Below are positions 289 through 18,430 of a stretch of DNA of 18,430 nt, piece after piece. The stretch is from the UHGV virus genome UHGV-0119144; one strand, given 5' to 3'. Both the position numbers and the translations under genes were made by a program. This stretch comes from a virus. Every line of letters begins with the position of its first letter. Within the stretch, counting starts at the first letter, position 1. The notes under the pieces were generated by a model. That model saw nothing but the letters and a program-made list of their open reading frames with translations. It did no database searches and had not been told where the DNA came from.

Positions 289-495
289 GTGCATATGTGT
301 ATCTTTGATACAGCGCACATTAACATCGGGAGAATAATCGTGTCATCCAAGGCTAATTATGAATCGCTGGCATCGATCATGCCGCGTAATGAACAGGAAG
401 CAGATGCTGTAGTGGACCCGGTAATCGCTGAAATGAATGCTCGCCTGGAGGCTGAATTTGCAGCTGAGAATGAACATACCACCCAGGGCGACTAG
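289..495 (+). CDS. Small acidic hypothetical protein (more likely starting at GTG 340 behind GGGAG)
   Basis: ORF in track; acidic, alanine-rich C-terminus; its end overlaps the start of the next gene. No family recognised. Confidence 0.3.
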   Translation: MHMCIFDTAHINIGRIIVSSKANYESLASIMPRNEQEADAVVDPVIAEMNARLEAEFAAENEHTTQGD

Positions 496-1099
496 GACTG
501 TTTTTTGTGTCGGTAGCGGTCCGTCACTCACTCGTGAGGACTGTGCTGCTATAGAAAAAACTGGCTGTTCAATCATCGCGGTTAACAATTCCTGGCAGAT
601 GTTCGATGACATTTATGCCTTATACGCCGGTGATTTGTCATGGTGGAAGCAATACGGATCCACCATACCGGGAGGGAGATTCCGCAAAGTGACAGCCAAC
701 CTGGCGGCGGCGAAATCATTTTCGTTGGAGTACAGGCGATATTGTGGACCGGCTGAAGGGGTTAATAGCGGCGCGCAGGCTATCAGTCTGGCGGCTGAAT
801 CAGGGGCTAAAGTAGTTGTATTAGTCGGCTATGACTGTTCTCTGCAAAACGGCCTTCATTGGCATGGAGCACACCCTCAAGCACTACGGAATCCAACGCA
901 GGTGTCTATTTCAAAATGGCAACAGCAGTTCCTGGATACCCGCAAAAAACACGCAGATTTACATATTTTGAATGCAAGTAGGAGCAGTGCAATTCAATGT
1001 TTCCCAAGAATAAATTTAGAGGCAGTGATCGCGTTATTATCGTCGGCAGTGGCCCAAGCGCCGCAAACTTTGTTGCGCCGCGCGGAGTGCCGATTATAG
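470..1099 (+). CDS. GSGPS-motif protein, paralog A (sialyltransferase GT42 / DUF115-fold-like)
   Basis: Motifs VFCVGSGPSL, IIAVNNSW, NSGAQAISLA, VVVLVGYDCS arranged as in CstII-type/DUF115 nucleotide-sugar enzymes. Alternative start ATG 437. Tandem paralog of the next ORF with similar length (209 vs 208 aa). Confidence 0.5.
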   Translation: MNIPPRATRTVFCVGSGPSLTREDCAAIEKTGCSIIAVNNSWQMFDDIYALYAGDLSWWKQYGSTIPGGRFRKVTANLAAAKSFSLEYRRYCGPAEGVNSGAQAISLAAESGAKVVVLVGYDCSLQNGLHWHGAHPQALRNPTQVSISKWQQQFLDTRKKHADLHILNASRSSAIQCFPRINLEAVIALLSSAVAQAPQTLLRRAECRL

Positions 1100-1623
1100 C
1101 GGTCAATGGGGCCATAGACTGGCTTAACCGCGCTTCTTATTTTTTCACCCTTGATCCATCGCCAGACAATATGCGGCGCGTTGGTCGTGGCCGCCGTCGC
1201 CGTGGTGTTTGTTATTGCATGGCGCTACCCGATGTTAAAGAACGTGAGGTCAGAGACGGCGTTCTGTGCTTCCGTCGTGTGGCTGAGCGCGGCACGGAGC
1301 CAAAAAATACGAATTCTCCCGAGTGGTGGGCGTGGCGCTGGTCCGCACATTTCGGCCTTTGCGAAGATGAGAATGAAATTGCCAGCGGCAATAGTGCATA
1401 TGGTGCTCTGAACCTGGCTTTCCATATCGGATTCAAACATGTCGCCCTGGTGGGCGTTGACGCTACACAAGAACCACGCGTTCACTCCGGCGGCACGCCA
1501 AAAAATCTAAGTCACCTGCCTTTGTTATTCCAGTCTGCGCGTGAACAGATTGACGTTGTTTCATGCGGGAAAATGGGAGGTATTCCGCAGATGACTCTTA
1601 AAGAATGGCTGAAGAATACATGA
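997..1623 (+). CDS. GSGPS-motif protein, paralog B
   Basis: [38 protein letters not shown] motifs collinear with paralog A; overlaps the end of paralog A by about 100 nt; contains an Arg-rich stretch [11 protein letters not shown]. Confidence 0.5.
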
Positions 1624-2297
1624 TGGCACCAACAATTTATCACCGTATCGACGGTACCAAATACAGGAATATCTGGGTTGTTGGTGATCTGCATGGTTGC
1701 TACAACAGACTGATGTCCGAACTCCATCGTGTGGATTTTGACCCGGCGCAGGATTTACTGATATCGGTCGGCGACCTTATCGATCGCGGTACTGAAAATG
1801 TCGAATGTCTGGAACTATTGCAGATGCCCTGGTTCAGGGCAGTGATGGGGAACCATGAGCGGCTGATGATTGATGCGTTAAGTCCAGATGGCAACGTGAA
1901 TAACTGGCTAATGAATGGCGGACAATGGTTCTTCATGCTGGACACTGATCAGGAAATATTAGCCAGGGCGCTGGTGGAGCTGGTAAAGCGTCTGCCCTAT
2001 ATCATTGAGTTGAACACCGGGCAAGAAACTATCGTTATAGCCCATGCCGACTATCCGGATAATGAATACCAATTCGGTAAGGAGGTGCCGCTTTTCAACG
2101 TTGTCTGGGCGCGCGAGCGTATCAGTGATTCGATGGATGATATTGGTGGCGAAATTTCGGGCGCAGATCGTTTTATCTTTGGTCACACTCCGGTGAAAAG
2201 CCCGAAGACATTCTGGAATCAGCATTATATCGATACTGGTGCCGTATTTTGCGGAAACCTGACATTGATGAAAGTGAAAGGTGATGGTGCAGCATGA
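1605..2297 (+). CDS. Ser/Thr protein phosphatase, PPP/calcineurin-like family (lambda NinI / PrpA-like)
   Basis: Signature motifs GDLHG, GDLIDRG, GNHE in canonical order. Likely true start is ATG 1623, overlapping the upstream stop (TGATG). Confidence 0.85.
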
Positions 2298-2995
2298 AGA
2301 TTGCTTTAGTTCTTCGCTCTGGTGGTGACTATAACGCTTCCGATGTGCAGTGGCTGGTTAATCAACTGCCAAAAGGCTATGAAATTATTTGCCTGACAGA
2401 CCTGAAGCGTTTACATGTACCTGGCGTCAAAGTTGTCCCATTGATCAACCAGTGGCAAAAGTGCCGTGGCTGGTGGGCGAAAATCGAGTTGTTCCGACCG
2501 GATATAACCGATGATCTGTTCTATCTGGATTTGGACACGGTTATTGCCGGTGATATACGCCCAATCCTAGAGCATCCACCAACCAGCTTCACCATGCTTA
2601 GGGATTTTTACCATCCACAATATCGTGGCAGCGGTGCCCTGTGGATACCAAATAGTGTTAAAGCGCATATCTGGAGTTCATTCTGGCAAGATCCGGAAGG
2701 TTGGATTTCTCGTTGTGTCACTACTGAGTGCTGGGGTGACCAGGGGTTCTTACGAAAGGTTATGGGCGATGATACACCAGCATTTCAGGATCTGTATCCA
2801 GGATGGTTTGTAAGTTACAAGGCCGATGTTGTGGAACCTGGTTCAAAATATGCGAGCGCGCGTTACTCCAGGGGGAATGGGGCATTACCAAAAGACTGCC
2901 GAATAATCTTTTTCCACGGCAAACCGCGACCTCGCGAAGTGTCAGAGGATTGGCTTCCCCTTATCAGCTCATTTTTTGAGCGAGAATCAGAATAA
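2294..2995 (+). CDS. GT-A-like glycosyltransferase-family protein with DxD motif (function unknown)
   Basis: 233-aa ORF; start overlaps the phosphatase stop (ATGA); N-terminal beta-strand-like [11 protein letters not shown] followed by YLDLDTVI (DxD). Domain call is from motif pattern only. Confidence 0.5.
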
Positions 2996-2996
2996 T

Positions 2997-3013
2997 ATTG
3001 CTCTAATAATTCA
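2997..3013 (+). promoter_or_regulatory. P1 C1-repressor operator-like site (14/17 to ATTGCTCTAATAAATTT)
   Basis: attgctctaataattca immediately after the stop at 2993-2995. Confidence 0.55.
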
Positions 3014-3045
3014 ATATTTTTAAAACGTGATGTACACTCATCACA

Positions 3046-3062
3046 TTTTTTATTAGAGCAAT
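3046..3062 (-). promoter_or_regulatory. P1 C1 operator-like site in inverted orientation (14/17)
   Basis: Reverse complement reads attgctctaataaaaaa; forms an inverted pair with 2997-3013 around the palindrome gtgatgtacactcatcac (3027-3044). Confidence 0.5.
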
Positions 3063-3076
3063 CTGCAAGGTGCACT

Positions 3077-3295
3077 ATGTGGCCATTCCGACGGAAATAT
3101 CACTACTGGCTGATCGCCTTTGTTACGCCGACCGGCGGTATCAGGCATGTCATCACCAGGTATCGCAACAAGAGACTCACCTTAGCCAGAATTTTACAGG
3201 CTGCCATAGGTGAGGGACTGGATACAAATTGCGTAGTCCTTCCACCTTCATACTTAGGAAAAATGACCGAAGCACAAGCTAATACGGAACTTTGA
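3077..3295 (+). CDS. Hypothetical small protein (72 aa)
   Basis: ORF just downstream of the paired operators; AAGGTG 7 nt upstream of ATG; no recognisable domain. Confidence 0.3.
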   Translation: MWPFRRKYHYWLIAFVTPTGGIRHVITRYRNKRLTLARILQAAIGEGLDTNCVVLPPSYLGKMTEAQANTEL

Positions 3296-3451
3296 AATGA
3301 GCACTTCAGCACAAAACCAATCAATCGAAAATGTATCTAGAGGAAACTGCGGCAAGAAGACTTCTCGATGTTTGCTATGCACGTAGCGATGCATGGGAAA
3401 AAGAGAACGGCGGCACTATTTACGTTCGCTGATAGTTACAGTGTCACTTTT

Positions 3452-3486
3452 AATGCTGGTGGAGTGCTCCCACCAGCATTTTTTTC
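3452..3486 (+). terminator. Rho-independent terminator
   Basis: 11-bp perfect stem aatgctggtgg / ccaccagcatt with 7-nt loop, followed by a T7 run. Confidence 0.7.
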
Positions 3487-3504
3487 GTCCAATGAGGAGG
3501 GCAT

Positions 3505-4008
3505 TTGAGTATTTTCAATAAACACGCACACCAGGAACGTCCGTACATCGTCATAGTAGATATTGATGGGACGATATCAGAGGCAACGGAAGACAGGCTG
3601 CATTTACTTCCACCACCTGGCAAAGGTGCATTAACAGAGCACTGGAACGAGTTTAACCTTGCCTGTGACACTGATGCTCCCATCACTCCAGTTATTGATA
3701 TGGTGCGCCAGTTGTCCGGCATTTACACCCTCTGGTTTGTAACCGGGCGCTGTGAGATAGCCAGGGATAAAACACGAGCCTGGTTGCGTAAGCACGTAAC
3801 AAATGGGGCTGAGCCTTTGCTATCTATGCGTCCTGCCACCGATGACAGAAATGACGGTCCAGCAAAGATTGATCTCCTGAAGAAAATTGGTCTAAGTAAA
3901 ATTGCGTTCGCGCTGGAAGATAAGATTGAAGTGGCGCGTGTTTTCAGGAGTCACGGCGTACTTACGTTAATGGTCAGGGAGTATGAAAATGCGCTTCTTC
4001 ATCAATAA
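3505..4008 (+). CDS. HAD-superfamily phosphatase-like protein
   Basis: TTG start 7 nt after GAGGAGG; N-terminal VIVDIDGT (HAD motif I, DxDGT). 167 aa. Confidence 0.55.
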   Translation: MSIFNKHAHQERPYIVIVDIDGTISEATEDRLHLLPPPGKGALTEHWNEFNLACDTDAPITPVIDMVRQLSGIYTLWFVTGRCEIARDKTRAWLRKHVTNGAEPLLSMRPATDDRNDGPAKIDLLKKIGLSKIAFALEDKIEVARVFRSHGVLTLMVREYENALLHQ

Positions 4009-4010
4009 TA

Positions 4011-4027
4011 ATTGCTCTAATAAATCT
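4011..4027 (+). promoter_or_regulatory. P1 C1 operator-like site (16/17)
   Basis: attgctctaataaatct directly after the stop of the HAD-like gene; best consensus match in the window. Confidence 0.65.
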
Positions 4028-4109
4028 TGATTTTTAAAGCAAAGAAAGTGAAAATAAAAACATGCCGCAAGGCGCGGCATGTATCCAATCAATCACAGGA
4101 GCTGAAAAT

Positions 4110-4196
4110 ATGAACACGGCATTCAAAATCATTATGGCCGCGATCTATTTCTGGCTGTTCTCTATCACTTTTGGCGGCATCGTCGCGCATGGGTAA
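4110..4196 (+). CDS. 28-aa hydrophobic peptide (predicted single transmembrane helix)
   Basis: ATG preceded by AGGAG (acaggagctgaaaatATG); translation MNTAFKIIMAAIYFWLFSITFGGIVAHG. Not in the ORF track because of size. Confidence 0.4.
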   Translation: MNTAFKIIMAAIYFWLFSITFGGIVAHG

Positions 4197-4230
4197 GGGG
4201 AGTATATTAGCCATTTGGAACCCCACGGTC

Positions 4231-4260
4231 TCTTGCGGGTTTAATTAAGAACCCGCAAGA
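4231..4260. other. 11-bp perfect inverted repeat (stem-loop) between convergent genes
   Basis: tcttgcgggtt ... aacccgcaaga with palindromic loop ttaattaa; T-run upstream and A-run downstream, so not a canonical terminator on either strand. Confidence 0.4.
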
Positions 4261-4275
4261 AAAACACGAATTGGG

Positions 4276-7200
4276 CTATATTTTTCCGCCTACGTCTTTA
4301 AACTTCTCAATAAACGAGACGATTTTCTGGAAAACTGCCTGTTTTTTCGTTTTATATTGCGGATTTAACGGACTAAGTTTTGGTAATGTTTCGTTTAATT
4401 CTGTGCCATTTTCGGTGGCATATTTGCGTTTTAAAGATGTGCGAATATAGCGTTTTGCTGCATCTTCATTGAGATTTTCTTCTTTAATCAACGCTTCTGC
4501 TTCACGTAGCTGTTCGTGTTGAGCAAAGGTAAAGAACGCGTCAATGATGCTGGCTTTGTCTGGTAAATCATCCAGGTTCGTTTGCTGAATAAAATCGACC
4601 ACCAGGCCCTCTTTCGCCCGGTTCCCCAGGCTTGAACGAATTAAGCGTTTGACCTCTTCGATCATTTCGCCCTTGCCTTTATTTTGTCTGTTATGTTCGA
4701 AAATCAGTCCAAGGATATAATCCAGGTTTATTTCCTGAGATTTCAGCAAATCGACCTCAAAAACTACGTCATCCCAGTCAGTGGTTGATTTCTCTTTTTT
4801 CTCAGCTTCTTTCTCACGGCGCTGCCAGTCGCGAATATCGTTATAGGCAGAACGATAATCCTGAATCTTGCGATCAGCAGGGAGACGAATTGTTTGCAAT
4901 TCAGCGAACTTTTCATCATCCACATAATGTTCTGCTTTGAATTTTTCTACCGCAACAGGATCGCTAAGATCGATTTGTTGCAGGGCTTTTAGCGTGGCAA
5001 ATTCATCATAGTTTTGCAGGATGTTCTCGGCACGCAGGTATTCGCCAAACAGTTTAACGAAGTCTTTCTTCTCTTTTTCACTTTCAATACTGGCAGGGTC
5101 AGGGAACCGTTGTTCCAGTTCTGAAACTACTGTCATGAAGCCGCGTTTAGCTTCACCTGTAGCAGCATCAGTAAAGCCTTCCATATACTCTGTATAACTC
5201 TTTTCTAACACCACATTTTTGGTGTTTTTGTCACCAAACAGCGTTATGGCATCAATAGTTGAGCGTTCCAGATCCCGGAAAGTGACGATATTACCGAAGG
5301 TTTTAGTTGCATCATAAATACGGTTGGTGCGGGAAAATGCCTGCATCAGGCCGTGAAAACGCAAGTTTTTATCGACGAATAGCGTGTTCAATGTTGGAGC
5401 ATCGAAGCCGGTTAAAAACATCCCCACGACAATTAGCAGATCGATATCCTGATTTTTAACCCGCTGGGCTAAATCACGATAGTAGTTCTGAAAACCGTTA
5501 CTGTCGGTGCTAAAGTTAGTTTTAAAATGGCTGTTATATTCACGAATTGCAGCGTCCAGAAACTCTTTAGCACTGCTGTCCATTGCGCTGGTATCAAAAG
5601 TTTCATCGGAAATTTCACCAATGGCATTTTGTTCTTCATTGGCGGCAAAGGAGAAGATTGTCGCAATACGCAGCGGTTTATAGGTAGCCGATTTATTAGC
5701 GGCTTCTTCTTGTAACCGTTTAAACGTCGCATAATAGGCTTTCGCGGCATCCACGCTGCTCACTGCCAGCATGGCATTAAAGCCTTTGGAGCCTGGGAAG
5801 GTACGGTGGGTTTTCTGGCGGAAGTTGTTCAGGATATATTGCGTGATTTCCTGAATACGCATGGGATGAAGAAACGCCTGCTGATTTTCAGCCGCACTTA
5901 GTTTTTTCTCGTCAGTTTCTGTCTCTAAAGACTTAAACTGTGGCCGCACATCGTTGTAGTCTACCTTGAATTTGAGCACTTTTTCGTCACGAATCGCATC
6001 GGTAATTACATACGAATGCAATTCACGACCAAATACGCTGGCGGTTGTTTCTGAGCCTAAGGCGTTTTCCGGGAAAATAGGGGTGCCGGTAAAACCAAAC
6101 TGATAATAGCGTTTGAATTTCTTCTTCAGGTTTTTCTGCGCTTCTCCAAACTGGCTGCGGTGGCATTCATCAAATATAAACACCACTTGCTGATTATATA
6201 CAGGCAGGTCGCTTTCTGCTTTCATCAGGTTATTGAGTTTCTGAATAGTGGTGACGATAATTTTGTTATCGTCCTTATCCAGATTTCGTTTAAGACCTGC
6301 GGTATTTTCCGAGCCGTTGACGCTGTCTGGCGAAAAACGCTGGTATTCCTTCATGGTCTGGTAATCGAGGTCTTTCCTGTCGACCACGAAGAAGACTTTA
6401 TCAATAAAGTCCAGTTCTGTTGCCAGACGCGCGGCTTTAAAGCTGGTCAGTGTTTTACCAGAACCGGTAGTGTGCCAGATAAAGCCACCGCTTTCGGGGT
6501 TAGACCAGTTTTTCGCTTTATAGGAGCTGTTGATTTTCCATAAGATTCGTTCGGTGGCGGCAATCTGGTACGGTCGCATCACCAGTAGCGTCTGACTACT
6601 GTCAAAAACGCTGTAGTTCACCAGAACATTCAGCAGAGTATGTTTCTGGAAAAAGGTAGCGGTAAAGTCTTTGAGGTCTTTAATCAGCGTGTTGTCTGAT
6701 TTCGCCCAATTCATGGTGAAGTCAAAACTGTTTTTATCGCGCTTTGTCGTGTTGGCAAAATAACGGGTATCGGTGCCGTTAGAAATGACAAACAGTTGCA
6801 GATACTTAAACAGGGAATTTTCGCTGTTAAAACTCTCTTTACTGTAACGATGTATCTGGTTGAAAGCCTCACGAATCGCCACCCCGCGTTTTTTTAGTTC
6901 GATTTGCACCAGCGGTAAACCATTAACCAGGATCGTGACGTCATAACGGTTAGCATGAGAACCCGTCTGTTCAAACTGCTGGATAATCTGCACCTTATTG
7001 CGCATGAGATTCTTTTTATCTATCAAATAGATGTTCTCAAGACGCTCGTCATCAAAAATAAAGTCGCAAATATAGTCGATATGGATTTTACGGGTCTTAT
7101 CCAGAATGCCATCACTCGGGTTGTCCAGATACTGCTCCGTGAAACGCCGCCATTCGCTGTCATTAAACACCACACCATTGAGGTTCTGAAGCTGTTCCCG

Positions 7201-7392
7201 AACGTTGGCCAGCATCGCCGACTGTGATTTTACGGGTATAAATTCATAGCCCTGATTTCGCAGGTCCTGAATCAGTTCCCGTTCCAGGTCCGATTCACTC
7301 TGATAGCTGTCGCCTGTTGGCTCAGCTTTGATGTACTTATCAAGAACGATAAAGTTATTGGATTCAGCAATGGTGTGTGTCTGATGAGTCAT
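4276..7392 (-). CDS. hsdR: Type I restriction enzyme R subunit (HsdR), type IC / EcoR124 family
   Basis: 1038 aa; PD-(D/E)xK nuclease motif ([18 protein letters not shown]), helicase motifs TGSGKT and FDECH; N-terminus [14 protein letters not shown] as in EcoR124-type HsdR. Confidence 0.95.
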
Positions 7393-7513
7393 AGCGCATC
7401 CTTTGTGCCGTCTGGCAAGGGCCGGAAGGGAGTTAAGGGCGACTTCCGGCGTGTAGAAAATAGTCTATATACTGACCGGATGTTAAGGTGGTCCGGTCTG
7501 TAAAAATGCTCAA

Positions 7514-8727
<1,214 letters not shown>

Positions 8728-8731
<4 letters not shown>

Positions 8732-10290
8732 TTCTGCACCTCGCAGCCTTCAATTTCAGCCACAATCGCATCAATATCTTTACGCAACTGGTCGATTTTG
8801 CTGACCGTGGTTTTCAGCTCTGCATTCAACTCAGCGATATTGATAATTTCGCGAGTATCTTTCGCTTCCACATAGCTGCTTACCGACAGGTTATAGTCAT
8901 TAGCGACAACGGCCTCAAACGTGACAGATTTTGCCAGATGAGCAACATCTTCCTTGCTGGAAAATACCTGCATAATCTGTTCGATATGGGCATCAGTCAG
9001 GATGTTGTTATTAGTCTCTTTTTTGAATAGCTCGCTGGCGTCAATAAACTGAACGTTGGTATCGGTTTTATGTTTAGACAGCACCAGAATATTGACGGCA
9101 ATGGTGGTGCCAAAGAACAGATTCGGTGCCAGTGAAATCACGGTTTCGACATAGTTATTGTCGACCAGATACTGACGGATTTTCTGCTCCGCACCGCCAC
9201 GGTAAAAAATACCCGGGAAGCAAACAATCGCAGCACGACCTTTGGCAGAAAGATAGTTCAGCGCATGTAATACAAACGCAAAGTCAGCTTTGGATTTGGG
9301 GGCCAGAACGCCAGCCGGGGCAAAACGTTCATCGTTAATCAGCGTCGGGTCATCGCTGCCAATCCATTTCACCGAATACGGCGGGTTAGAAACGATGGCA
9401 TCAAACGGTTTTTCATCTCTGAAGTGCGGTTCAGTCAGCGTATTGCCCAGCTTGATATCAAACTTGTCGTAGTTGATGTTGTGCAAAAACATGTTCATAC
9501 GCGCCAGGTTATAGGTCGTATGGTTGATTTCCTGACCAAAAAAACCTTCTTCGATGATATGGTCATCAAACTGTTTTTTAGCCTGCAACAACAGCGAACC
9601 GGAGCCTGCTGCCGGGTCGTAGATTTTGTTAACGTGGGTCTGCCCGTGCATAGCCAGTTGTGCAATCAGCTTAGAGACGTGCTGCGGTGTAAAGAACTCG
9701 CCGCCTGACTTACCGGCATTTGCCGCATAGTTAGAGATCAGGAACTCATAGGCATCACCGAACAGGTCAATCTGATGTTCGTTGAAGTCACCAAGTTTTA
9801 ACCCTTCAACCCCTTTCAGAACCGCAGCCAGGCGGGCATTTTTATCTTTAACGGTGTTACCCAGGCGGTTACTGGTGGTATCGAAATCAGCAAACAAACC
9901 TTTGATGTCTGCTTCTGAAGGGTAGCCGTAAGCAGAACTTTCGATAGCAACGAAGATGCTGTTTAAATCTGCGTTCAGTCTGTCATTGGTATTTGCTTTC
10001 GCAGCTACGTTGCAGAAAAGCTGACTTGGGTAGATGAAGTAGCCTTTGGTTTTGATGGCATCGTCTTTAATGTCATCAGTAATTACGCTGTCATCCAGTT
10101 TCGCATAACAGATGCTGTCATCACCGGCTTCAATATAGCTGGAAAAATTTTCGCTGATAAAACGGTAGAAAAGCGCGCCCAGAACGTATTGCTTAAAATC
10201 CCATCCATCGACCGAACCTCTGACATCGTTAGCAATTTGCCAGATTTGACGATGAAGCTCTGCACGTTGTTGAATACTTGTCATTTTCAT
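8728..10290 (-). CDS. hsdM: Type I N6-adenine DNA methyltransferase subunit (HsdM), type IC
   Basis: 520 aa; SAM-binding motif [10 protein letters not shown] and catalytic NPPY. Confidence 0.95.
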
Positions 10291-10427
10291 CCACTTATTT
10301 CAGGCTTATGTAATTGGCGGTGATTCTACAGCAACTTGGATGCTTTAGCAGTTCGGACATTAGGCTACGAATGACCTGCCTAGAGGTTTGTTAAGCCGCA
10401 AAGTGCTGGTGCTTTATGCCTGTGAAG

Positions 10428-10460
10428 TTTATAATTGTGTACACATAACGAGTACACGAG
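10428..10460 (+). promoter_or_regulatory. phd-doc promoter with Phd/Doc autoregulatory operator palindromes
   Basis: -10 TATAAT at 10430-10435, followed by perfect palindrome tgtgtacaca (10436-10445) and related gagtacac (10450-10457), then GAGG RBS. Confidence 0.6.
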
Positions 10461-10466
10461 GTATTT

Positions 10467-10688
10467 ATGCAATCCATTAACTTCCGTACCGCGCGCGGCA
10501 ACCTTTCTGAAGTGCTCAACAATGTTGAGGCCGGGGAAGAGGTTGAAATCACCCGCAGAGGCCGTGAGCCAGCAGTAATTGTCAGCAAGGCTACTTTTGA
10601 AGCCTACAAAAAAGCGGCGCTGGATGCTGAATTTGCATCCCTGTTTGACACCCTGGACTCCACCAACAAGGAACTGGTTAACCGATAA
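10467..10688 (+). CDS. phd: Phd antitoxin (Phd/YefM family), P1-type
   Basis: 73 aa, [49 protein letters not shown]; stop overlaps the doc start (TAATG). Confidence 0.95.
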
Positions 10689-11068
10689 TGAGGCATATAT
10701 CACCGGAAGAACTTATTGCGCTTCATGATGCGAATATAAACCGCTACGGCGGCCTGCCGGGAATGTCTGATCCGGGTAGGGCAGAGGCCATTATCGGGAG
10801 AGTTCAGGCCAGAGTTGCCTACGAAGAGATCACCGACCTTTTCGAAGTCTCCGCCACCTACCTGGTGGCTACGGCGAGAGGGCATATATTCAATGATGCC
10901 AATAAGCGTACCGCGCTAAACAGTGCGCTGCTATTTCTACGCCGTAACGGGGTGCAGGTATTTGATTCACCTGAACTGGCAGACCTTACTGTAGGCGCTG
11001 CGACTGGCGAGATATCTGTATCTTCTGTCGCCGACACGTTACGTAGATTGTATGGTTCTGCGGAGTAG
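10688..11068 (+). CDS. doc: Doc toxin (Fic-fold kinase), P1-type
   Basis: 126 aa with Fic motif HIFNDANKR. Confidence 0.95.
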
Positions 11069-11072
11069 ATTA

Positions 11073-11252
11073 ATGGCACGTAAATACAACAAATTGTCCC
11101 GTGAAGCGTTAAAGATGCTTCTTGATGGCGTGAGTCGCCGCGAGGTAAAGCAATACCTGGCTGGTAAGCAAATTGGTGCCAGGACCGCTATTGCTGTGTT
11201 ATGCCGTCAGGAAATGGTTGTGCTTAAACAGAGAATGCCGGGCAGCATATAA
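11073..11252 (+). CDS. Small basic hypothetical protein (occupies the P1 pdcA position)
   Basis: 59-aa ORF starting 4 nt after the doc stop: MARKYNKLSREALKMLLDGVSRREVKQYLAGKQIG. The track's longer version (11052) overlaps doc. Confidence 0.4.
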   Translation: MARKYNKLSREALKMLLDGVSRREVKQYLAGKQIGARTAIAVLCRQEMVVLKQRMPGSI

Positions 11253-11279
11253 AGCCCAATCAGTGATTAAAGGTGTGAT

Positions 11280-12323
11280 GTGAAAGCCGTAATTACTCCC
11301 TTTGTACAGAAAGAACTTGGCCTCGCCACGTTCAAAGTGGATCAGGAGGTCAGAAAGCTGGTGGAGGCTGGCCGTAAATTTATTATGGAGCCGGTGCCGC
11401 GTGAGTTAATCGAGCACATGGACGACGGCCTCGTTGCTTCCGAGCAAACTATAGCAACAAATGAGGCGTTGCAGCCGTTTTTTAACAGCGATGAACTGTT
11501 TCGCCGTATTGGTGGAATTGACGCGCTGGTGGCGTGGTTGCGCAGGAAAGAGGGGCAATGCCAGGCCGCAGATCGTAGCTGGTGTGACAACCATATTGTC
11601 CACGCTGAACGAGACAATAGCGCGGTGTTGTTGTGCTGGCATCACGATAACCATTACCGGATGCGTGGTTTTAATGAGCTGAAAGAAACGCTGCACAATA
11701 ATCGCGTTAACTGGATACTGGATGTCGCCCGTCAGGAAATGGGCCTTTCAGATAGCCATGATTTAAGTATTCAGGAGCTGTGCTGGTGGGCTTTCATGCG
11801 TAACATGATGCACCTGATGCCGGAAGAAGTCTGCCGCATATCAATAAATAAGATGAAGGCTGCTCCGCAGGATAGCGGACCTCTGAAAGAGGCGGATATT
11901 CGCCCGTATGACGATCGCGCTACAGCATATGTTCAGATGATGGAAGAACGCGCCGCGCCGATGCGTGCAAAAGTATGCCCTGTGGATGTTGACTCCGACC
12001 CAGGTATGGCGCATTTCAAAATACCAAAACTTCAATCGCTAAAATTGCCCGAGTACATGGACTTTGTGGCTTCCCGTCCATGCTGTGGCTGTGGAGCTGC
12101 GGGAGCTGGCGCTCACATTACGCCTTATATCGTTCGTCATAGTCGATTATGCGCGCATGACATTTACGCAATTCCTCTGTGCCAGTCATGCCAGCGTGAT
12201 ATTGAGCGTGACCGCGATAATTGGGAGAAGACGCACGGTAGGCTGGCGATGCATCAACGATTGTTCTTTGATTACGCGCTTGGAGTCGGCGCTATCACAA
12301 GTTACTCGTCGAGCGTTAGATAA
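11280..12323 (+). CDS. Cys/His-rich hypothetical protein (occupies the P1 pdcB position)
   Basis: 347-aa ORF, GTG start behind AAGGTG; metal-ligand-like clusters [15 protein letters not shown]...CWHHDNH and C-terminal CCGCGAAG...LCAHD...CQSCQRD. Confidence 0.5.
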
Positions 12324-12324
12324 A

Positions 12325-12341
12325 ATTGCTCTAATGTATTG
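12325..12341 (+). promoter_or_regulatory. P1 C1 operator-like site (14/17), with an overlapping partial repeat ATTGCTAT
   Basis: attgctctaatgtattg immediately after the stop at 12321-12323; followed by inverted repeat gattag/ctaatc around TTGACA (12376-12398). Confidence 0.5.
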
Positions 12342-12411
12342 CTATTTCTTTAATCGATGGTATTATATTCCACGTTGATTAGTTGACATGGGCTAATCAG
12401 TAGGTGACAGG

Positions 12412-12726
12412 ATGTTACTTAACTGGCAGGGACGCCACTTCATGGAAATAAATCACTCACGAATAACATCGTACGAGATTGCGAATTACATGATCCGCAC
12501 TAAATCTCTTCTATCAGCGAAAGAACTCGCAGCAATTCTTGAAAAGGAATACCCGCATCTGGATGTCGATAAGCGCGATGTTTATCTGCGCTTAAAAGCT
12601 ATCGCTGTGTCTAAGTATTCGTCTGTTTTGATTGATGACAGTACGAACGAAAGCGTGAAAATAACTGGTCAGTGCTGGAAGCAGCTGAATTCATCGAGGC
12701 GCATGGCGGGAAAGTGCCGCCCCTGA
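12412..12726 (+). CDS. Hypothetical protein (alternative start ATG 12442); possible late-activator (lpa-position) gene
   Basis: ORF downstream of an operator; no domain recognised; overlaps the next ORF by 55 nt. Confidence 0.3.
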
Positions 12727-13043
12727 TGCTGGAGCAAATCAAAGCCGATCTGCGTGCTCCTAAGACCAATACCGATGATGAGGAAAGGCAAACAGCCGTC
12801 GGTGGCCCTTCTCTTGAAGATCTGGACAAAGTTGCGCGAGAACGGGCCGCCAACCGCCGCGCCGATGCCGCATTGTGGATTGAGCAGCGTAGGGAAGAAA
12901 TCGCCGATATCGTTGATACAGGCGGTTATGGAGATGTTGATACTGAAGGTGTATCAAACGACCCATGGCTGGAACAAGACCTGGACGAAGACGAGGAGGA
13001 AGACGAAGAAGTTACCCGCAAGCTATACGGGGATGATGATTAA
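12672..13043 (+). CDS. Acidic protein translationally coupled to terminase large subunit (possible small-subunit remnant)
   Basis: GTG start; C-terminus [12 protein letters not shown]...DDD; stop overlaps the ATG of the next gene (TAATG). No cluster of TGATCA/G pac hexamers seen in 12300-13100. Confidence 0.35.
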
Positions 13044-14956
13044 TGGCCAGAAGTTGCGTAACGGATCCACGTTGGCGCGAGCTGGTGGCGCTATATCGTT
13101 ATGACTGGATTGCGGCCGCTGATGTTTTGTTCGGCAAAACACCTACCTGGCAGCAGGATCTGATTATTGAGTCTGTGCAGGAACAGGGTAGCAAGACATC
13201 TGTTTCGTCTGGTCACGGTACCGGGAAATCAGACATGACTTCTATCATGATCATGTTGTTCATAATCATGTATCCCGGTGCCCGCGCCATTATCGTTGCG
13301 AACAAAATTCAGCAGGTAATGACCGGTATATTCAAGTACATCAAGATAAACTGGGCTACTGCCACCAGCCGTTTTCCATGGCTTGCTGATTATTTTGTTC
13401 TGACAGAAACCGCTTTCTATGAGGTTACTGGTTGGATTTGCCCCTATATTTCCAGACACCTGTTATCACTTAACCCATTACTGGCTTGCTGCCGTAGATA
13501 TTCCCGTGGCGAGCGATAACCCAGTGCACTATGCGGATGCCATTCGTTATAATGCTCGAACGCCTCTGCAAGGTTCTTTGCTGCCGTTAACCCGTCTGGT
13601 TTGGGCATGACACTGATGTAGTCACGCTTTATCGTTTTCACGAAGCTCTCTGCTATGCCGTTACTCTCCGGACTCCGCACCGCCGTGCTCTTCGGTTCAA
13701 GCCCCAACATCCGGGCAAACTGCCGTGTTTCATTAGCCCGGTAGCATGAACCATTATCCGTCAGCCACTCTACTGGAGACGCCGGAAGCTCGTTGCCGAA
13801 GCGGCGTTCCACCGCTCCCAGCATGACGTCCTGTACTGTTTCACTGTTGAAGCCGCCCGTAGTGACCGCCCAGTGCAGTGCCTCACGGTCACAGCAGTCC
13901 AGCGCGAACGTGACTCGCAGTTTTTCTCCGTTATCACAGCGGAACTCGAACCCGTCAGAGCACCATCGCTGATTACTTTCTTTCACAGCCACTCTGCCTG
14001 TATGTGCCCGTTTCGATGGCGGTACAGCAGGTTTTCGCTCAAGCAACAGCGCATTCTGGCGCATGATCCGGTAAACACGTTTGGCATTGATCGCAGGCAT
14101 ACCATCAAGTTCTGCCTGTCTGCGAAGCAGCGCCCATAACAGTGAGGAATCACCGCTGGTAACGTCAGAATTTATCAAAATGAAGCTGGCGGAGTACGGC
14201 GGGCGTGATAACCCTATGTACATGATTAAGGTACGCGGCCTATTCCCTAAATTACAGGACGGCTTCCTTCTTGGACGTGATGAGGTTGAACGTGCGACGC
14301 GGCGGAAAGTCAAGATTGCCAAAGGATGGGGCTGGCTTGCATGTGTGGACGTTGCTGGTGGTACAGGACGGGATAAGTCCTTTATCAATATCATGATGGT
14401 GTCCGGCCAGCGAAATAAACGCCGTGTAATCAACTATCGAATGCTGGAATACACAGACGTTACAGAAACGCAGCTTGCCGCCAAAATTTTCGCAGAATGT
14501 AATCCTGAGCGATTCCCCAATATCACCATAGCGATAGACGGCGATGGCCTGGGTAAAGCAACGGCGGATCTGATGTACGAGTATTATGGTATTACCGTAC
14601 AGCGTATACGCTGGGGTAAAAAGATGCATAGCCGTGAAGATAAGAGCCTGTACTTTGATAAACGTGCTTATGCCAACGTTCAAGCCGCAGAGGCCGTAAA
14701 ATCTGGTCGTATGAGACTGGATAAGGGTAATGAAACTATTGAGGAAGCGTCGAAAATCCCTGTAGGGATTAACTCCGCAGGTCAATGGAAGGTGATGAGT
14801 AAGGAGGATATGAAGAAAAAACTCAACCTGCACTCACCAGACCATTGGGATACATATTGTTTCGCTATGCTGGCGGATTATGTTCCCCAGGACGAAGTGC
14901 TTAGCGTCGAAGACGAAGCGCAGGTTGATGAAGCTCTGGCATGGCTTAATGAATAA
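13043..14956 (+). pseudogene. Terminase large subunit (PacB-like) interrupted by an IS2 fragment
   Basis: N-terminal 130 codons (13043-13432) carry a deviant Walker A (SSGHGTGKS); C-terminal part (about 14139-14956) is terminase-like. The two parts are separated by 706 bp of IS2 and are not joinable in frame. Confidence 0.55.
13433..14138 (-). mobile_element. insD: IS2 (IS3 family) 3' fragment: right terminal region plus C-terminal ~230 codons of insD
   Basis: Minus-strand translation 13444-14136 matches IS2 InsD from [28 protein letters not shown] to NRCLEI; IS2 terminus TGGATTTGCCCCTATATTTCCAGACACCTG at 13433. insC and the left end are absent. Confidence 0.88.
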
Positions 14957-14959
14957 ACA

Positions 14960-14976
14960 CTTGCTCTAATAAATTG
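14960..14976 (+). promoter_or_regulatory. P1 C1 operator-like site (15/17), Op51-like position upstream of immI
   Basis: cttgctctaataaattg, 4 nt after the terminase stop. Confidence 0.55.
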
Positions 14977-15107
14977 TGTTTTTTGACTGCCGATGTTACA
15001 TTGAACCTGACCTCTTGCGCCTTGAGGCATTTTCGGTTTATGCTTATCAGGCACCTCATTAAAACGGGTGCCGGGATTGAGACCCCGGATAATGTCAAAG
15101 GCGACAC

Positions 15108-15130
15108 AGACGCCGAAAGCGTCTTTTTTT
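15108..15130 (+). terminator. Rho-independent terminator / attenuator inside the immI leader
   Basis: Stem agacgc / gcgtct with loop cgaaa, followed by a T7 run. Confidence 0.6.
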
Positions 15131-15315
15131 GTGTCATGCCATCGCACAGCCATACGTAGCGTTTAGCTCCGAAATCAATGGTAGTGCTGGCTGGGCTGCC
15201 GAAAGGCAGGCCGGTTCCCTTTGACGCCGGTAGTCTCAACCCAGTCAGTGCTACCGCCATTGAGATTGAGACCTCACGCGGTAGCTCCTTAACTTAGTCA
15301 AAGGAGGCTGCCATT

Positions 15316-15537
15316 ATGGCTACTGTCCCTACCCCAATTCATCCTGAATTTATCTGGCGCTTTTACTCCTGCCAAAAACGTCACTATCACTTCGTTATTG
15401 CACCGACAGAAGATGAGGCCCATTCTCAGCTTCCTGACGCTCCCTGCATTTTCTCTGCCCGCTTTTCAACCGATTTGCGCAATTCTCTCAGTTACTGGTG
15501 CCTCCCTGTTAACGCTTCTGCTCAGGAGGGACTATGA
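15316..15537 (+). CDS. Icd-like small protein (73 aa), translationally coupled to ant
   Basis: AAGGAGG RBS; stop overlaps the ant start (ATGA); size and position match P1 icd. Sequence identity not confirmed from memory. Confidence 0.45.
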   Translation: MATVPTPIHPEFIWRFYSCQKRHYHFVIAPTEDEAHSQLPDAPCIFSARFSTDLRNSLSYWCLPVNASAQEGL

Positions 15538-16648
15538 GAACGTCATTAGTTACCCGTGAAGAGATGATCGAGGCAATTGAACAGCACACTGCCTGTATCA
15601 GTACTAGGGATATACCGGGCGTTATTGCCAACTACTTCATGATCACCAAACAACTTTACCGGAGAAAGGACAAGAACGCAGTTCACCGCATCCTGCTGTC
15701 TGATATCCGCGAATACCTGCTCGAACAGGGGCATCTGAATTACGCAACCGTCGCAGCCGAAGCACGCAAGGAGGCACACAGAATGAAAGCTACTAACGTT
15801 AAATCAGAAAAAGTTCATGCACCTTCAGTTCAGGAATCAGAGCTGGTGGTTGTTCAAAATCAGTCGGATGAAATTCCCGTTCTGGAGTGGCAGGGAGTGC
15901 GTGTCGTAACAACCGAAACTCTTGCTAAGGGGTATGGTACAGAAGCGATTCGCATTCGCCAGAATCATCATGAGAACAAAGTACGCTTTGTTGAAGCGAA
16001 GCACTTTTTCAAGGTTATTGGCGATGAGCTGAAAAATTTGCGGGTAGCTTTAAACTACTCACAAAATCCAGTCTCCCCCAAAGCGCGCTCTCTCATCCTC
16101 TGGACAGAACGAGGAGCTGCCCGTCACGCTAAAATGCTCGAAACCGATCAGGCATGGGCATTCTTTGAAAAACTGGAAGACAGCTACTTCCGACAAAAAG
16201 AACAGCAACCGGTCGCAATCCCCCAGACGCTTCCAGAAGCTCTGCGCCTGGCTGCCGAGTTAGCTGAACAAAAGCAACTTCTGGAACAGAAAGCCCACCA
16301 GCTAAATCAGCAGCTGGTGGCTGCCGCTTCTAAAGTCGATTTTGCCGACCGGGTATCAGTAGCTAAAGGGATCCTGATTGGGAATTTTGCAAAGGTCGTT
16401 GGACTTAAACAAAATGCGCTGTTTGCCTAGTTACGGGAGAACGGCATTCTGATAGCGTCCGGAGGCCGTAAAAATGTACCGTTCCAGCAGTACATCAACG
16501 CGGGTATTTCACGGTGAAAGAAGTGGTGCTGGATGATGAAGATGGCTACCAGATACGGTTGACGCCTCAATTAACGGGTAAAGGCCAGCAGTGGTTGACG
16601 CGTAAACTGCTCGATGCTGGCTTGTTAAAACCGGTGGCGGCTGAATAA
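15534..16648 (+). pseudogene. ant: Antirepressor (AntA/Bro-N-like core plus KilAC-type C-terminus) with nonsense and frameshift lesions
   Basis: Open to TAG at 16428-16430, sitting where KilAC proteins have an aromatic residue (LFA*LRENG). The downstream KilAC-like sequence continues in frame as ILIASGGRKNVPFQQYINAG, then shifts by one frame near 16502 into GYFTVKEVVLDDEDGYQIRLTPQLTGKGQQWLTRKLL. Confidence 0.6.

Positions 16649-17971: not shown

Positions 17972-18430
<459 letters not shown>

Follow-up and report, generated by a model that had tools for sequence, protein, structure and literature searches.

The region 12325–13043 of the stretch of DNA analysed here (the window; 18,430 nucleotides of the virus genome UHGV-0119144) is, with a probability of about 95%, the scar left by gene decay in the module for packaging and late control of a P1-derived plasmid of the RCS47 type. 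No data speak against the deletion that formed it.

The megablast search of window 11000–15500 against phage records retrieved Punavirus genomes, which align in 3 pieces with 72–84% coverage. The identity amounts to ~98% with RCS47, JL22 and SJ46 and to ~91–92% with P1 and P7. The annotated order of elements in P1 and RCS47 is phd, doc, pdcA, pdcB, Olpa/Plpa, lpa, LPpac, pacA (with pac inside it), pacB and c1, and the window shares the gene order and the flanks of this module, running from phd-doc-pdcA-pdcB-Olpa/Plpa-lpa to pacB-(ant)-c1-coi. Phd, Doc, PdcA, PdcB, C1 and Coi are intact (97–100% identity by tblastn), the retained parts of the lpa-pacA-pacB module are 96–100% identical at the protein level to those of P1 and RCS47, and the flanks of the deleted region are 92–98% identical to both genomes. 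Judged by these alignments, the window represents a P1-like element of the RCS47 type.

The control region upstream of lpa has been preserved. The C1 repressor operator Olpa (former Op94) is intact at 12325–12341 on the plus strand; its sequence, ATTGCTCTAATGTATTG, is identical at 17 of 17 bases in the window, P1 and RCS47, and its position matches the protein_bind feature of P1 (NC_005856, locus 2826–2842) through a collinear BLAST segment. The operator placed at 12325 by the preliminary description is thus borne out, by sequence as well as by position, as Olpa of P1. Olpa overlaps the sigma-70 promoter Plpa at 12339–12366 on the plus strand (TTGCTA, a 16-nt spacer and TATTAT, with TG upstream of the -10 element), which is annotated in P1 at locus 2840–2867 and was also recovered independently by a consensus scan.

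Downstream of this promoter the alignment with functional P1-like phages breaks. Window 10385–12644 aligns to RCS47 locus 886–3145 and window 12642–13432 to locus 4243–5033; since the two aligned segments share the trinucleotide TAC, the window lacks 1,100 bp, and the break shows a 3-bp microhomology. The junction lies at 12642–12644, and TAC is found on both parental sides, as seen both from the 3-bp overlap of the BLAST segments and from direct comparison of the parental sequences. The deleted interval (locus 3146–4245) holds lpa codons 79–150, the late promoter LPpac (P1 locus 3397–3415), pacA codons 1–264 and the whole pac site, so the window has no late promoter between lpa and pacA. At the junction, lpa codon 78 is followed, in a different frame, by pacA codon 265/266. 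The full 1.1 kb is present in every phage record of the search. A deletion or rearrangement of the small-subunit/pac region, which had been suspected from the letters of the window, is supported by the alignment with RCS47, JL22, SJ46, P1 and P7: the region is neither collinear nor full length relative to these phages, so the reading as a deletion stands.

The junction also explains the two overlapping ORFs reported earlier, both of which are present: 12412–12726 (104 aa, ATG start) and 12672–13043 (123 aa, GTG start). The lpa' fragment (12412–12645, plus strand) corresponds to codons 1–78 of the 150-codon late promoter activator gene and is 98.7% identical to residues 1–78 of Lpa from P1 and RCS47 (tblastn). 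It matches only positions 1–64 of 131 in the Pfam profile BPP1_LPA and positions 1–79 of 148 in the profile phrog_1704; residues 1–78 are all that the window encodes of the 150-aa protein. As lpa is in frame 1 and pacA in frame 3, the plus-strand ORF 12412–12726, when its translation is set against P1 Lpa, consists of Lpa residues 1–78 and a tail of 26 residues translated from pacA DNA in a non-native frame. The 'pacA fragment (12642–13043, plus strand) comprises codons 265–397 and the stop codon; by tblastn it is 100% identical to RCS47 PacA residues 265–397 and 92.5% identical to P1 PacA, and it matches positions 288–402 of 417 in the terminase profile phrog_1711. Only these residues of the 397-aa PacA are encoded. 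The second ORF is the portion of 'pacA downstream of an internal GTG, in front of which no Shine-Dalgarno sequence can be seen; the homology starts 10 codons earlier. The 123-aa product is therefore the C-terminal third of PacA and not a short small subunit. Searches of the window by tblastn with full-length Lpa, PacA and PacB returned only the fragments described here, so the window carries no additional lpa, pacA or pac. PHROGs does hold families as long as the truncated ORFs (104/104 and 158/158). The overlapping small ORFs would be chance products of the change of frame at the breakpoint, without a role of their own.

The pac site is known to occupy 161 bp within pacA and to contain seven TGATCA/G repeats bearing Dam sites (PMC10028697). 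The absence of a cluster of such hexamers, already noticed in the preliminary description, was confirmed by a TGATCR scan, which found no hexamer between 4877 and 13247 and 17 in the whole window against 22.5 expected by chance. Taken alone, zero hexamers in the 719 bp of 12325–13043 is insignificant (~0.9 expected). The absence is meaningful because the positive controls, P1 and RCS47, do show the clusters: both carry four hexamers at locus 3644–3683 and three more at 3774–3802, with 26–30 hexamers per locus against ~10 expected and none of 200 shuffles reaching such a number. Both clusters (all seven hexamers), the IHF site and the mapped cleavage positions (3726–3735) lie inside the interval deleted from the window; hence nothing is left of the arrangement in pacA, in which 4 + 3 hexamers enclose the IHF site together with the cleavage positions. 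The density of GATC, which had also been proposed as a check, agrees with this: 12 sites lie in the stretch of P1 that is missing from the window, against 3 in 12325–13043.

The midpoint of the deletion, locus 3695, falls close to the cleavage positions of pac, with ~585 bp removed to the left of them and ~515 bp to the right. The chance of such centring is roughly 6% under a uniform model, computed after the fact, so that it is no more than a lead. Together with a microhomology of only 3 bp, it means that the deletion could be the repair product of a survived pacase cut. A combined explanation, in which the deletion arose by resection and end joining at such a cut and the remaining N-terminal domain of Lpa acts as a dominant-negative factor against related phages, appears improbable. 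If the deletion did arise from such a cut, P1-like phage-plasmids could become locked into plasmid life by cleaving themselves at pac.

The decay extends into pacB. The gene following the two ORFs had been taken for the terminase large subunit gene, but it is broken: the open frame that begins at 13043 stops at 13519 (158 aa) inside a remnant of IS2. The pacB' fragment (13043–13432, plus strand) comprises codons 1–130 of 494 and is 100% identical to RCS47 PacB residues 1–130 (tblastn). It is followed by 706 bp of IS2 adjoining the right inverted repeat (13433–14138; transposase frame on the minus strand, 100% identical to IS2 InsD sequences), and then by the 'pacB fragment (14138–14956, plus strand), which comprises codons 223–494 and the stop codon and is 98.2% identical to RCS47 PacB residues 223–494 (tblastn). 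The 494-aa protein is thus divided in two by IS2, and its residues 131–222 are absent.

In three complete plasmids carrying the same insertion, H15 plasmid A, 2273-PO3 unnamed2 and p22AR0118B, the complete 1,331-bp IS2 is found at the same pacB site with a 5-bp duplication (CTGGT), and pacB codons 131–494 are retained. A complete IS2 (IS3 family) possesses 1,331 bp, both inverted repeats, orfA/orfB and the 5-bp duplication. Since the window keeps no more than the 706 bp that adjoin the right inverted repeat, its copy is, by its structure, a remnant unable to transpose. In contrast to the three plasmids, the window carries a further deletion of 905 bp with TA microhomology (junction at 14137–14138), identified by comparison with H15 plasmid A, of which locus L003 10840–11744 is missing. 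Of IS2 it took 625 bp and of pacB 275 bp, along with the 5-bp duplication between them. An ordinary IS2-mediated adjacent deletion was considered as its source and rejected: the endpoint lies within the IS and not at an IS end, so this is not a classical deletion of that kind. The IS2/pacB junction occurs in 0 of 5,426 complete E. coli genomes and was seen in the window only; it may be an assembly collapse.

The distribution of the lpa/pacA junction is different. For the search, a 200-bp query centred on this junction was used, and a record was counted if at least 80% of the query was covered in one place. The junction was found in 3 of 619 E. coli records and in 2 of 618 plasmid records; the other records match its halves separately. 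The three carriers are complete E. coli plasmids, namely H15 plasmid A (NZ_CP010179.1), 2273-PO3 unnamed2 (NZ_CP061751.1) and p22AR0118B (NZ_JBRAVH010000003.1), and the sources of the carrier plasmids are a sheep carcass from the USA, human urine from New Zealand and strain H15. They share with the window both the lpa'/'pacA junction and the insertion site of IS2 in pacB. The exact 32-mer across the junction is also present in a human-gut metagenome contig in ENA, which runs parallel to the window as far as 14138, where the IS2 fragment ends. Five junction carriers show 0–1 differences over 1,108 bp (12325–13432; 99.9–100% identity). In p22AR0118B both fragments are annotated by RefSeq as pseudogenes, “missing C-terminus” and “terminase, missing N-terminus”.

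These occurrences bear on the suspicion that the apparent deletion is an artefact of assembly, i.e. a chimera of mis-joined reads. The window does start in IS1 and end in ISKpn26, like a contig assembled from short reads, and its IS2-internal junction at 14137–14138 is missing from the complete genomes; nevertheless, the lpa/pacA junction is identical in three independently finished plasmids and in the gut-metagenome contig. An artefact at this junction is therefore very unlikely. Because of this identity, the lpa/pacA scar is, on present sequence data, genuine, inherited and already contained in public databases.

Several other features of the window may be mentioned. Its ends, an IS1 end at 1–53 and a copy of ISKpn26 (IS5 family) at ~18040–18430 inserted beyond coi, are typical of a repeat-bounded contig. 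Just upstream of phd/doc, where P1 has hot-lxr-humD, these genes are replaced by a type I restriction-modification locus on the minus strand (4276–10290), with hsdR (1038 aa, EcoR124-type C-terminal domain), hsdS (405 aa) and hsdM (520 aa). The target-recognition regions of hsdS (notably 7652–8662) find no match in relatives that are otherwise 97–99% identical, and those of the three plasmids named above differ from the ones in the window, which implies that the encoded specificity probably differs from that of the relatives. Between the IS1 end and this locus there is a cluster of phage-type accessory genes (437–4008), encoding two MptE-like/sialyltransferase-like proteins, a NinI-like metallophosphatase, a glycosyltransferase and a polynucleotide-kinase-type phosphatase. 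Between pacB and c1, the ant gene (15534–16645) is a pseudogene: compared with RCS47 Ant, it is interrupted by a stop at 16430 and changes frame near 16502, and the RefSeq annotation of ant in the relatives reads “frameshifted; internal stop”.

There is also a match between the ~80 N-terminal residues of Lpa (window 12412–12660) and positions 1–83 of phrog_63, the N-terminus of an Ant-type family, and in one E. coli plasmid (H186) the operator and the first 285 bp are annotated within “antirepressor Ant”. The N-terminal domain of Lpa thus looks like a shuffled module with the deletion breakpoint at its edge.

This arrangement makes it conceivable that the fragment has been exapted: residues 1–78, under C1 control, could serve as a dominant-negative blocker of the late transcription of superinfecting P1-like phages and be kept as a defence. 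The operator, the promoter and the first 78 codons are indeed intact, and the deletion begins at the border of a discrete N-terminal module, which Ant-type proteins possess as well (phrog_63 and H186, as above). On the other hand, no PADLOC defence model was matched by either of the two ORFs, by PdcB or by the upstream accessory genes, those of the 437–4008 cluster included. The allele is rare (the 3 of 619 records given above), other plainly inactivating lesions surround it (the IS2 insertion in pacB and the ant pseudogene), and with 0–1 differences among the five carriers there is no sequence variation for a test of selection; a test for relaxed selection on the scar has no power. We regard such a role of the fragment as hardly credible.

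Lesions in the lpa-pacA segment look common. Among the 691 E. coli records that match it, 550 contain 80% or more of the segment at a single place and 141 do not, and some of the 141 may be divergent rather than damaged. Small terminase subunits of 100–160 aa occur in many phages. That the window holds a functional but short packaging module, with a 123-aa small subunit and a small regulator under C1 and with a pac of another type or located elsewhere, would be compatible with two open ORFs behind an intact promoter-operator and with subunits of such size, but the alignment has already refuted it as far as sequence can, given that the frame of the second ORF is 100% identical to the C-terminal 133 residues of RCS47 PacA and extends 10 codons upstream of a GTG with no visible Shine-Dalgarno sequence, that the final 26 residues of the first ORF are out-of-frame pacA, that the gene of the ATPase/nuclease partner, pacB, is interrupted by IS2 and has lost codons 131–222, and that the complete segment is the rule in the phage records and in most of the E. 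coli records searched.

The preferred reading, decay of a phage-plasmid, may be described as follows. P1 late transcription requires Lpa together with the host protein SspA, and gene 10 is regulated by C1, as is also stated in GenBank feature notes. An illegitimate deletion of 1,100 bp at a 3-bp microhomology eliminated LPpac and all of pac, cut Lpa down by its C-terminal half and deprived PacA of its N-terminal two thirds, so that the C1-repressed Olpa/Plpa survives in front of a dead operon. Separately, IS2 inserted after pacB codon 130, and in the window only, the further 905-bp deletion appears to have taken away part of IS2 and pacB codons 131–222. An Lpa without its C-terminal half should be incapable of activating the late promoters, and in the absence of pac, PacA and PacB neither pac cutting nor headful packaging should take place. 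With late promoters, pac cutting and head filling all lost, the element would therefore persist only vertically as a plasmid, by means of phd/doc, which are in the window, and of the replication and partition genes found in its complete relatives. Mobilisation could be a further route of spread. The loss of function is read here from gene content.

The best match to the window, H15 plasmid A, gives an impression of such an element in its complete form. This plasmid of 116 kb is typed IncY and keeps repA, parA, parB, cre, c1, coi, phd, doc and a holin gene from P1, as well as fragments of a few other P1 genes; no head, tail or portal genes are annotated in it. Its repA, parA and parB genes and the IncY typing belong to a part of the plasmid that lies outside the 18.4-kb window. 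The cargo of the plasmid includes genes for tetrathionate respiration, lactate utilisation, arsenic resistance and heat resistance, along with many IS and a MOBH relaxase. The window itself combines homology to the P1 backbone with the loss of phage-cycle genes, lpa, pacA, pacB and ant being inactivated.

It has been documented that P1-like phage-plasmids can turn into plasmids as they lose genes, and that mob/oriT is often acquired in the course of this (PMC10879196); the make-up of H15 plasmid A agrees with this picture. The P1-derived plasmids without phage functions of that study (Pfeifer and Rocha 2024, PMC10879196) resemble the window in that they retain a remnant of the P1 backbone and have lost packaging and late functions; the comparison in that work is made at the level of gene repertoires. 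No description of the breakpoint between lpa codon 78 and pacA codon 265 with TAC microhomology was found in it. Decay of the genes of a phage-plasmid on its way to a plain plasmid is thus a documented process, and the element is of an ordinary, known kind.

The scar alone raises no new biological question; its value lies in annotation. The element should be recorded as a defective P1-derived plasmid and not as a transducing phage-plasmid, and its “small genes” as pseudogene fragments. The case shows the phage half of a P1-like element being lost while immunity (c1 and its operator) and addiction (phd/doc) are kept.
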